Of a stretch of 64,000 nucleotides of DNA, positions 60,001 to 64,000 are shown in pieces. Numbering within the stretch: the stretch's first letter is position 1; each line of letters opens with the position of its first letter. Made by a program: the position numbers. The DNA is from Escherichia coli O157:H7 (GTDB lineage: Bacteria; Pseudomonadota; Gammaproteobacteria; Enterobacterales; Enterobacteriaceae), in assembly GCF_013167455.1 (NCBI RefSeq), contig NZ_CP038328.1. One strand, given 5' to 3'.

Positions 60001-63000
60001 AGACGAACGGCTGAAAATGTTCAACTGGCGTACCGGTATAATGGCGCAACCGCGCGAGGGAAAAATCGACGCGGCGCGCATCAAAATGCGATAGCGGGGA
60101 GAATTCAGTTGGATGATAAATGCCGTCTGCAGTTTCATCGCCAATTTGCGCCAGTTCTGTTGTCGGGAAATAGCGAGTTAACCCAGCGCTCATTGAGCGA
60201 TCAAGTGTTAATTCAGAGCCATCGATGACATAAGGATAAGGGATTTCATGCTGTGAGGGTTGCACCGAGATATGCGCGCCATAATCCTGATACAGCAACG
60301 TAAGTTGTTCATTAAGATACGAACGAAAGAGAGTAGGGCGAGTAATCGTGGTGGTGTAGCTGCCTGCGTGAGTAAAACGACCAAATGCGCGCGTTTTGGG
60401 GGGATTTGTTGTGCTACCGTCCCAGGTTACGGTCAGAGATGGATAGACAAAAAGACCTTGTTTGCGGGCGTTTTCATCAGGTAATTCGCCACTTGTAATA
60501 TAGTTGCCAATGGCGTTGCGTAATGCGACTACAGATTGCTCATACAGCGCGTCGAGTTTATCCAGTGCCTGAGCTGGGGTCAGACCGGAGCCCTTATTAT
60601 TCATGTGTGTCTCCTGTTCCATACAATTACCGCACATCCGATAGTATGTCACAGGAATGTGAAACAAAAGTGTAAGGCGAAGATCGGATGATCTTCGCCA
60701 GACTATCAAGCGCGTTGATTGTCTTTCATCAACAAAGCGGTCATTGCGGAAATCAGACATCCAGCCAGCAAATAAATGGCGACGCTATGCCAGTTCCCGG
60801 CAAAGTAAGTGATGAGCGCAGCGGCAATAAAAGGTGTAAATCCACCGCCAACCACACTGGCAACCTGATAACCGACTCCAGCACCACTATAGCGATAACT
60901 GGCACCAAACATTTCGGTAAACATCGGTTGTTGCACACACACCACCATGTCATGCGCAATGTTTGCCAGCATTATGGAGAAGAAAACTATCCAGAAAATA
61001 GATTGTGCTTCAAGCGCCATAAAGAAAGGAAATGCGCTCAACGTTCCGATCAACGCGCCTGTGATATAAACCCTGCGGCGACCAAAACGATCGGCAAGCC
61101 AGGCAAAACAGGGAATTGTCAGGCAGCTTAATCCACCTACCAGCAAACCAATATTAAGGAAAAGTTCGCGCGGTAACCCCATATTCTGAGTTGAATAATT
61201 AAGTGCAAAGGCGGTAACGATGTACATTGTCAGCAACTCGCACAGTCGTAGCGCAATAATCTTCAGGAAAGCACCGGGATGTCGTAACAGCGCTTCGATA
61301 ACCGGGATGCGTTTTTTCGCGGCCGCTTGATTATATTGCTGTTGTTCAAATTCCGCGGACTCTTCCATGCCATTGCGCACCCACAATGCTCCCAGTACCA
61401 GTACGATGCTAAACAGGAAAGGAATGCGCCAGCCCCAGCTTAAAAACTGTTCGTCAGTCGTCATCATACTGATCAATGAAACCAGTCCGGTTGAAAGCAG
61501 TAAACCTACACCGTAGCCAACTTGTACACCGCTACTGTAAAAGGCTTTTTTATTTTTCGGTGCACTTTCAACGGAAAGCAACGCCGCGCCTCCCCATTCG
61601 CCGCCGACGGCAAATCCCTGAATGGCACGCAGCGTCACCAGTAAAATAGGTGCCCACCACCCAATGGTCGAGAATGAAGGAAGAATACCAATCAAGGCTG
61701 TCGCGATGCCCATCATCCAGACGGTCAGCATTAACATGCGCTTACGTCCCAGTCGGTCGCCAAAGTGACCGAAAATGACACCGCCGAGCGGACGGAAAAG
61801 GAATCCGACGCCAAAGGTGGCAAATGCGGCGAGCGTTCCCATAGCCGGGCTTACTTGCGGGAAAAACTCGCGATTAAACACCAGTGCGGCGGTAATGCCA
61901 TAGAGTAAAAAATCATACCAGTCGACGACGGCACCAGCGAAACTGCCTAACGCAGCTCGTCGGGCGCGACTTAACGAAACCGTCCTTTCATCGGGACGAG
62001 TGGAGATGAGCGTGGAGTCCATAATGATCCTGTTTGTACTGTCTTTTTATAATTAGTATGGAAAAGGTAACTCACATTGCGTCGATCTATAAACGAACCT
62101 TATGAGACTACCTCGACAGAGCGCATCTGCAAATGATTTTATGGCTGATTAACGGCAACATGAAAAATTCGCTGGAAGATGAAAGCGCAGGAGTTGCTGG
62201 TGTTGTTTAAGGATTAAGCAGAGGCCCCACAGGTTCGAGATATGAAACATAAAAGTCCGCATATGCACAAAATTGCACCCTGATGATTCTGATAGACTGC
62301 ATTGCATTATAACCAGTAGGGAGGCGAGGTTAGTTATGTTTTTAGTATCATTGTTGAGACGTATTGCATTTAGTTACTACGATTATAAAGCTTATAATTT
62401 CAATATTGAAAAAACAGACTTTGTTGTCATCCATATTCCCGATCAGATTGGCGATGCTATGGCCATCTTTCCTGTTATTCGGGCGCTTGAATTGCATAAA
62501 ATTAAGCATCTATTAATTGTTACGTCGACAATTAATTTAGAAGTCTTTAATGCGCTCAAACTTGAACTGAACCGCCCCGGGTTTCCTGGAGAGTGTTTTA
62601 TCTGTGAACTCAGGCTGCCAGATCATCGTTTCCGATGGAAGCATAATAAGCTTTTTCTGCTTCTGCCGGAGGAGTATGGCCCAGCCTTCCCAGCAATCGT
62701 CGATTGTTATACCAGTCCACCCACGTTAGTGTGGCCAGTTCCACTTCTGCACGGTTTTTCCAGCTCTTACGGTGTATTACCTCCGCTTTGTAAAGACCAT
62801 TGATGCTCTCAGCCATCGCGTTGTCATACGAGTCGCCTGTACTCCCTGTTGATGCCAGTAATCCGGCTTCTTTTAGTCGCTCCGTATAGGCCAGTGACAC
62901 ATACTGAGAGCCTTTATCGCTGTGATGGATGGTGCCAGACGGACGACGGGCCCACAACGCCTGCTCCAGCGCATCCAGCACGAATGTCGTTTCCATAGAC

Positions 63001-64000
63001 GATGAGACCCGCCACCCCACGATGTATCCGGCAAACACATCAATGATAAACGCCACATAGACGAAGCCCTGCCATGTGCTGACGTAAGTAAAATCAGCCA
63101 CCCACAGCTGGTCAGGTCGTTCTGCCACGAACTGACGGTTTACGCGGTCGCCTGCGGCAACGGCTTTCCGGCTGATGGTCGTACGGACCTTTTTACCCCG
63201 GAGAACACCGGCAAGTCCCATAACCGCCATGAGACGTGCCACTGTACATCTGGCCACCCTGATTCCTTCCCGTAACAACTGACGCCAGACTTTACGCACA
63301 CCGTACACCTGATGATTTTCATCGTATACGCGCTGTATCTCTCTCTTCAGCCAGTCGTCGTGCTGCGCACGGGCACTGCGTTTATCCGGATGATGTCGCT
63401 GTTGCTGACAATGGTAATACGTTGACGGGGCAATATGCAGTTCGCTGCATACCGGTCCGACCCCGTACTGCTCACGCAGCTTATCCAGCAGTGGCATCAT
63501 TTTTTCCAGAGGCGGTCGAACTCCGCCTTCGCAAAATAAGCGGAAGCCTGGCGAAGGATATCGTTACTGCGGCGCAGTTCACGATTTTCACGTTCCAGCT
63601 CTTTCAGACGCTGACGTTCAGCGCTGGTGAGCCCACCATCACCGCCCCCGGTATCCCGCTCATGCTGGCGAACCCAGACACGCAGAGTCTCCGGCGTACA
63701 GCCAATCTTTGGGGCAATGGAACAAATTGCCGCCCACTGTGAGTCATATTCATCCTGACTTTCCAGAACCATACGAATCGCCCGCTGACGGACTTCGGGG
63801 GAAAAACGAGTATTTTTAGTCATCCTGTTTACCTCTTTCTCAGGGAGTTTAGTCTCCAGGATTTCCGGGGCGGTTCAAACAGACTAAATTAACATTAGTC
63901 ACAATGACTATGCAGGATCACGCAACATTAAAAGAAATAAAAGATTTAGCGAAGAACATAACACAGCAATACGGTACGCCGGATCTTTGTATAGAGGCGA

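Follow-up and report, generated by a model that had tools for sequence, protein, structure and literature searches.

An IS629 copy in yeeL

A copy of the insertion sequence (IS) IS629 has very probably transposed into the chromosomal gene yeeL of an Escherichia coli O157:H7-type genome (contig NZ_CP038328.1, RefSeq assembly GCF_013167455.1), leaving a null allele that is probably close to neutral. The locus was analysed in a stretch of 64,000 nucleotides, hereafter the window, in which the element directly abuts two copies of the trinucleotide AAC, at 62565-62567 and 63878-63880. The interrupted open reading frame (ORF) begins with an ATG at 62336, preceded by GGAGG/GAGG, and the element starts after its nucleotide (nt) 232, a break that falls after 77 codons and the first base of codon 78. 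The AAC duplication, the start at 62336 and the interruption after 77 codons had all been proposed in an original prediction made from the sequence of the window, and each is borne out here. When the IS and one AAC are removed, the frame stays open to the end of the window, at codon 117, and the 352 visible nt show 100% identity to the intact O157:H7 allele over its nt 1-352. A downstream sequence that failed to continue the glycosyltransferase frame would have spoken against the original prediction; the frame does continue, with full identity to the intact allele. The features of the site are as follows.

62336-62567, plus strand: 5' fragment of yeeL, codons 1-77 and one base, 100% identical to nt 1-232 of the WP_000480501.1 allele
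62565-62567, unstranded: left copy of the AAC target-site duplication, equal to yeeL nt 230-232, from sequence reading and flank comparison
63878-63880, unstranded: right copy of the AAC target-site duplication, from sequence reading and flank comparison
63881-64000, plus strand: continuation of yeeL, nt 233-352 to codon 117, cut at the window end, in frame after removal of the IS and 100% identical to the intact allele
62336-62803, plus strand: chimeric ORF of 77 YeeL and 78 IS-encoded residues followed by a stop, within the listed ORF 62273-62803
60706-62022, minus strand: shiA (shikimate transporter), the intact divergent neighbour, an ORF of 438 amino acids (aa) annotated as shiA in identical relatives

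The divergent arrangement with shiA had also been recognized beforehand, and the 313-bp spacer between the two genes is untouched. Strain 61_150228 is collinear with the window on both sides of the element, positions 55034-62567 of the window corresponding to 16723-24256 of its locus (L003) and positions 63878-64000 to 24254-24376. The two flank matches overlap by 3 bp, which are the AAC duplication, and this overlap points to a simple insertion.

The flanks are 100% identical to those of O157:H7 strains. A 240-bp query spanning the left junction found no single-piece match among 5,426 complete RefSeq E. coli genomes, the set to which the genome searches below refer, and neither chimeric ORF product (one of 155 aa, one of 176 aa) has an exact match in a collection of 15 billion proteins. 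Strains G5295, ECP19-598 and F3113, which gave the best 2.1-kb matches (100% identity), were considered as carriers of the same insertion and rejected, the IS lying elsewhere in them, at yeeL nt ~114 or in the shiA-yeeL spacer. Given the identity of the IS copies described below, the perfect duplication and the absence of the junction from the complete genomes, the insertion appears to be recent and private to this strain or its lineage, in an O157:H7-type background.

Anatomy and identity of the inserted element

The sequence between the two AAC copies is a complete IS3-family element of 1,310 bp (62568-63877), which starts with TGAACCGCCCCGG and ends with CCGGGGCGGTTCA, and whose terminal inverted repeats are perfect over 13 of 13 positions and match at 22 of the first 25 bp. 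The original prediction had listed it, with the right coordinates, as the third IS629 copy of the window, and two further copies are indeed 100% identical to it over the full length, one at 42656-43965 in the opposite orientation and one at 53724-55033; an exact triplicate of 1,310 bp rules out a chance match. The structural hallmarks of the IS3 family and of IS629 were found, namely a length within ~1.2-1.5 kb with terminal inverted repeats of the form 5'-TG...CA-3', overlapping orfA (helix-turn-helix) and orfB (DDE/rve core) with a programmed -1 frameshift, and a direct target duplication within the 3-4 bp of IS629, here AAC.

The two transposase genes lie on the minus strand with a 4-nt overlap, antiparallel to yeeL and in the same direction as shiA, and orfB scores 316 bits against the NCBIfam model transpos_IS3, for which the cut-off is 160. 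An A6 slippery run lies within the orfA/orfB overlap, inside a full-length match to the ALIL pseudoknot (Rfam RF01497), a structure that stimulates frameshifting in IS3-family elements. The parts of the element are listed below.

62568-63877, minus strand (transposase genes): complete IS629 (IS1203-type, IS3 family), recognized by its identity to the other copies
63853-63877, minus strand: left terminal inverted repeat, at the orfA end, its first 13 bp perfectly complementary to the other end
62568-62592, minus strand: right terminal inverted repeat, recognized by its complementarity to the left end
63497-63823, minus strand: orfA, 108 aa, helix-turn-helix N-terminal part of the transposase (Pfam HTH_Tnp_1, 47.3 bits; transpos_IS3 positions 1-86)
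62610-63500, minus strand: orfB, 296 aa, DDE integrase core, made as an OrfAB fusion (Pfam rve, 96.9 bits; HTH_21; rve_3)
63426-63542, minus strand: ALIL pseudoknot (Rfam RF01497, 121.5 bits, gathering score 50, full model 1-117)
63500-63505, minus strand: A6 slippery run, read as T6 on the plus strand and followed at once by the orfA stop (63497-63499)

The matching copies in O157:H7 genomes, which are 100% identical, carry the Prokaryotic Genome Annotation Pipeline (PGAP) name 'IS3-like element IS1203 family transposase, programmed frameshift', and IS1203 is an isoform of IS629, an element that generates target duplications of 3-4 bp (PMC3271280). In O157, IS629 is the most abundant IS, with 23 copies, and a major source of gene inactivation and deletions (PMC9943667). 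The present element agrees with the IS629/IS1203 of E. coli O157:H7 and Shigella in length, ends, ORF organization, pseudoknot and 3-bp duplication, so that its sequence supports the assignment to IS629 (IS1203-type, IS3 family); the name is taken from the PGAP annotations of identical copies and from these papers, and not from an ISfinder reference sequence. Compared with known IS629, the element itself shows no difference and its novelty lies solely in the insertion site, as judged against the complete genomes. Its GC content is 54%, against 51.3% for the window.

The target gene and its intact form

The interrupted gene, described in the original prediction as yeeL-like, can be named more sharply as the true yeeL orthologue: it shares 97% nt identity, with no gaps over 1,053 nt, with yeeL of K-12 (b4497), and the gene order yeeJ, yeeL, shiA, amn, yeeN, tRNA-Asn, yeeO is that of K-12. 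The full gene (1,053 nt, 350 aa) was reconstructed from an O157:H7 relative with 100% identical flanks, from which the 3' end of the intact allele, nt 353-1053 ending ...GCGAGAATATGA and convergent with yeeJ, is expected beyond window position 64000.

Ordinary O157:H7 strains have an intact yeeL, whose product is annotated as a 'glycosyltransferase family 9 protein' (WP_000480501.1); at least 1,000 public contigs carry this protein in exactly this form. Nearly every E. coli has the gene, with a match in 5,267 of the complete genomes and at least 80% of its length in one place in 4,940. The K-12 gene occupies the same locus between yeeJ and shiA (6277-7329 of the K-12 locus, L002) and is full length except for a single CAA-to-TAA change at codon 235, which has led to its annotation as a pseudogene, whereas the window allele is broken by IS629 at nt 232 and the ancestral O157:H7 allele is intact (350 aa). 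Literature retrieved with the term 'yeeL' mentioned it as a K-12 pseudogene or an integration site only, the remainder being author-name noise. With 38.9% GC, compared with 51.3% for the window, yeeL is markedly AT-rich, as would fit horizontal acquisition or silencing by H-NS.

YeeL as a divergent family-9 glycosyltransferase

Within the intact 350-aa protein, residues 207-321 match the Pfam profile of glycosyltransferase family 9 (GT9; PF01075) with 30 bits, above the cut-off of 22. Taken alone, the 117 residues that the window shows match no GT9 profile, even at E ≤ 1. A phmmer search of YeeL against the PDB returned nothing at E ≤ 1, and a profile of 26 family sequences reached WaaC marginally (E ~ 0.09). 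Alignment with hhalign to WaaC and WaaF covered the C-terminal domain only (about residues 207-321); in the WaaC alignment, the YeeL motif QDRTF falls on DDKHW (R220 on K192) and TPDTS on SVDTG (D290 on D261). Residues D13, K192 and D261 of WaaC are conserved catalytic and donor-binding residues, and both R220 and D290 are invariant in the YeeL family alignment. An N-terminal aspartate of YeeL (D36/D40 in HIPDQIGDAM) was set on WaaC D13 by eye only, the N-terminal domains having no sequence alignment.

Because the sequence searches against the PDB were empty or marginal, we turned to fold prediction. An AlphaFold2 model built from the family alignment reached a predicted local distance difference test (pLDDT) of 86 and a predicted template-modelling score (pTM) of 0.83, with low confidence only at the loop 142-158. 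In this model, two Rossmann-like domains form a GT-B fold whose nearest solved structures are those of GT9 enzymes. The best Foldseek matches in the PDB were the GT9 protein 3TOV (E 9e-15, template-modelling (TM) score 0.72), WaaF 1PSW (1e-13) and WaaC 2GT1/2H1H/6DFE (about 2e-11), in alignments that each span about 345-365 columns; apart from one photosystem-complex chain, the ten best matches were all to 3TOV, 1PSW, 2GT1, 2H1H, 2H1F and 6DFE (E 9e-15 to 2e-10, TM 0.62-0.72). The Pfam match to the C-terminal domain, which lies outside the window, together with the predicted GT-B fold closest to WaaF and WaaC, supports YeeL as a divergent GT9 enzyme. The family assignment of the original prediction was therefore right, but on the basis of the C-terminal domain and the predicted fold and not of the N-terminal part visible in the window. 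Its more specific claim of a heptosyltransferase-like N-terminal domain stands in part: it finds no counterpart in sequence profiles, which match at ~207-321 only, and holds at the level of the predicted structure, where both domains resemble those of GT9 proteins and the N-terminal one would be GT9-like in fold.

The YeeL family is restricted to Escherichia, Pseudocitrobacter, Erwinia, Rosenbergiella and their relatives and, outside the close E. coli alleles, its members share 52-72% identity with the O157:H7 protein, with about 90 invariant columns that include HIPDQxGDAM, C114, C147, C152, PDT and KTRW. The cysteines C114, C147 and C152 are invariant across genera, and two of them lie within or beside the low-confidence loop 142-158; this triad may form a metal or redox site specific to the YeeL subfamily of GT9.

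YeeL and the heptosyltransferases

Profiling of the lipopolysaccharide (LPS) core had been suggested as a way to follow up the insertion. YeeL resembles WaaC and WaaF (CAZy GT9) in its predicted two-domain GT-B fold, its Pfam GT9 match and the aligned C-terminal motifs, but shares only about 13-15% identity with them and has invariant cysteines of its own (C114, C147, C152). Its scores against the NCBIfam heptosyltransferase equivalogs lie far below every cut-off (heptosyltransferase I, 39.7 against 185.3; II, 19.5 against 134.6; III, 17.3 against 170.2; RfaQ, 15.9 against 467), and yeeL has shiA and yeeJ as its neighbours, well away from the waa cluster. Judged by these scores and by its location, YeeL is unlikely to be one of the LPS-core heptosyltransferases. 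A change of the LPS core is accordingly not expected from the insertion, and core profiling is unlikely to show anything, in view of the same scores and location and of a gene that is already a pseudogene in K-12.

We also considered YeeL as a TibC/AAH-type heptosyltransferase that would glycosylate the adhesin YeeJ, the adhesin gene yeeJ adjoining yeeL. This candidate was rejected for want of similarity to TibC/AAH and of a conserved linkage to yeeJ: neither name occurs among PDB profile matches at E ≤ 10 or among the 50 best Foldseek matches, and no adhesin or inverse-autotransporter gene neighbours the yeeL homologue in Erwinia, Rosenbergiella or Pseudocitrobacter. A gene for a major facilitator superfamily (MFS) transporter is the single recurrent feature of the yeeL context. 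In Erwinia persicina and Rosenbergiella (L008, 6636-9113; L009, 6678-9050), the yeeL homologue lies ~155 bp downstream of a co-directional MFS transporter gene, and in E. coli and Pseudocitrobacter yeeL is divergent from one (shiA, and a shiA-like gene in Pseudocitrobacter).

Probable consequences of the insertion

The IS629 copy inserted at the AAC of yeeL nt 230-232 (of 1,053) and duplicated it, and YeeL, of 350 residues, is cut after residue 77. In the predicted GT-B fold the cut would fall within the N-terminal Rossmann-like domain, whose strands and helices run to about residue 140 in the AlphaFold2 model. The remainder of this domain and the whole C-terminal nucleotide-sugar-binding domain, with R220 and D290, would be split from the promoter and the start codon, and the largest possible product would be a chimera of 155 aa (77 from YeeL and 78 encoded by the IS) ending at 62803. 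With its donor-binding domain separated from the start, the allele would be null.

The gene is monocistronic and the next gene, yeeJ, is convergent, so that no polarity is expected. This, together with the nonsense pseudogene of K-12 and the independent IS strikes in other lineages (see below), indicates that the insertion is probably near-neutral; in culture, as in several natural lineages, yeeL can evidently be dispensed with. We are dealing with an ordinary strain-specific polymorphism, in which the element, the gene and the kind of event are already known and only the exact site is new.

Several points weigh against this interpretation. The loss of function is deduced from the position of the break, and we infer near-neutrality for a member of a family that is strongly conserved across genera (the 52-72% identity and about 90 invariant columns given above), which argues that the intact gene is under selection somewhere. 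Further, the last 701 nt of yeeL lie outside the window, and the intactness of the gene in this strain before the insertion is not directly shown. Finally, a small probability attaches to a misassembled repeat, although the perfect 3-bp duplication argues otherwise.

In itself the insertion is of little import, IS629 being a standard source of small structural polymorphism in O157:H7. The junction of yeeL nt 232 with IS629 could nevertheless serve as a private marker to type or trace the strain or its lineage, akin to IS-printing. The strain is also a natural yeeL null beside many isogenic-like O157:H7 strains with an intact gene, a pairing that could aid the assignment of a function to this GT9 subfamily.

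Other disruptions of yeeL and nearby IS629 copies

Disruptions of yeeL by IS elements were found in other strains, as follows.

yeeL nt ~114: IS629-type element, O157:H7 G5295 and ECP19-598, with the duplication GAT
yeeL nt ~209: IS629-type element, 90-3040 group, with a deletion into yeeJ
yeeL nt ~352: IS629-type element, SCU-204
yeeL nt ~793: IS629-type element, O111 group, joined to a pilV fragment
within yeeL: IS1, strains Eco-15, CUPS03 and 410

The IS629-type insertions hit the same gene with the same kind of element as the window allele but at other positions (~114, ~209, ~352 and ~793, against 232), which marks them as independent events, two of them accompanied by adjacent deletions or rearrangements. 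The recurrent hits are real, but we do not claim yeeL as an IS629 hot spot: in the about 30 genomes with a nearby copy, the insertion sites range across amn, shiA, the spacer, yeeL and yeeJ without a demonstrated excess over chance, and yeeL is AT-rich. This search joined same-strand pieces only, and the orientations are thus not comparable. Neither yeeL, shiA, yeeJ, cbl nor TonB is mentioned among the 47 IS629 sites of an earlier study (PMC3271280).

The two other IS629 copies of the window have sites of their own. The second (53724-55033) breaks up cbl, a regulator gene, at about its nt 283; the duplication flanking it is TTC (53721-53723 and 55034-55036), and its junction is absent from all the complete genomes. 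The first (42656-43965) lies in a TonB-dependent-receptor pseudogene with a CAC duplication, and no complete genome shares its junction at high identity. Strain 61_150228 has its IS629 site 585 bp away and in the opposite orientation; that site, the usual one in O157, is a clean empty site in the window (42068-42071), with a single copy of the 4-bp target.

Alternative explanations

Three private copies within 21 kb suggest either excision and short-range re-insertion or a lineage absent from the RefSeq complete genomes. A local IS629 burst of the former kind ('local hopping') would be an unusually clear natural case, with three identical private copies in 21 kb and the usual site empty. A different departure from near-neutral polymorphism would be a selected loss of YeeL: the gene has been lost repeatedly, through the nonsense codon of K-12, through no fewer than five IS629-type insertions of independent origin (the window allele among them) and through IS1 insertions. 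On this reading the conserved GT9 enzyme YeeL, with its invariant Cys triad, may have a target other than the LPS core, and its loss would reflect selection against a surface glycan (for example, escape from phage or host recognition) rather than neutral decay. Taken jointly, the burst and the selected loss are unlikely, and we retain ordinary, near-neutral transposition as the explanation of the yeeL allele.

It is also conceivable that yeeL was already dead when the IS arrived and that the insertion is a second strike in a pseudogene. K-12 offers a precedent, a single nonsense codon having made its yeeL a pseudogene, and the 3' two-thirds of the gene are outside the window; against this, the visible 352 nt show no difference from the intact allele (100% identity), and the O157:H7 relatives with 100% identical flanks have an intact gene with CAA at codon 235, which makes a prior loss distinctly improbable. 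We see similarly little chance of a regulatory effect, in which read-through or outward transcription from the IS would alter the expression of shiA or drive the 3' part of yeeL. IS3-family elements are generally able to affect neighbouring genes, and the transposase genes point towards shiA, whose start is 545 bp beyond the end of the IS. However, the insertion leaves intact all 313 bp between the two genes, native shiA promoter included; any outward promoter is hypothetical, and a protein made from the 3' part of yeeL would be without the N-terminal domain and its invariant D36/D40 motif.

That the assembly misplaced an IS629 repeat in yeeL is very improbable. The pattern is admittedly unusual, as none of the three IS629 sites of the window occurs in any of the complete genomes and the usual O157 site in the TonB-dependent-receptor pseudogene is empty; yet each copy has its own perfect 3-bp duplication (CAC, TTC and AAC), which assemblers do not create, and at the empty site the 4-bp target is present cleanly and once only. 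Lastly, a rearrangement breakpoint, at which recombination between IS629 copies would have joined unrelated flanks, as is known at yeeL in the O111 group (nt 1-793 joined via an IS to a pilV fragment) and the 90-3040 group (nt 1-209 joined via an IS to yeeJ) and for which the two identical copies in the window are possible partners, is essentially refuted for the visible part, where yeeL runs on from one flank (nt 1-232) to the other (nt 230-352) with 100% identity to the intact allele and a perfect 3-bp direct duplication, the signature of transposition and not of recombination between copies.

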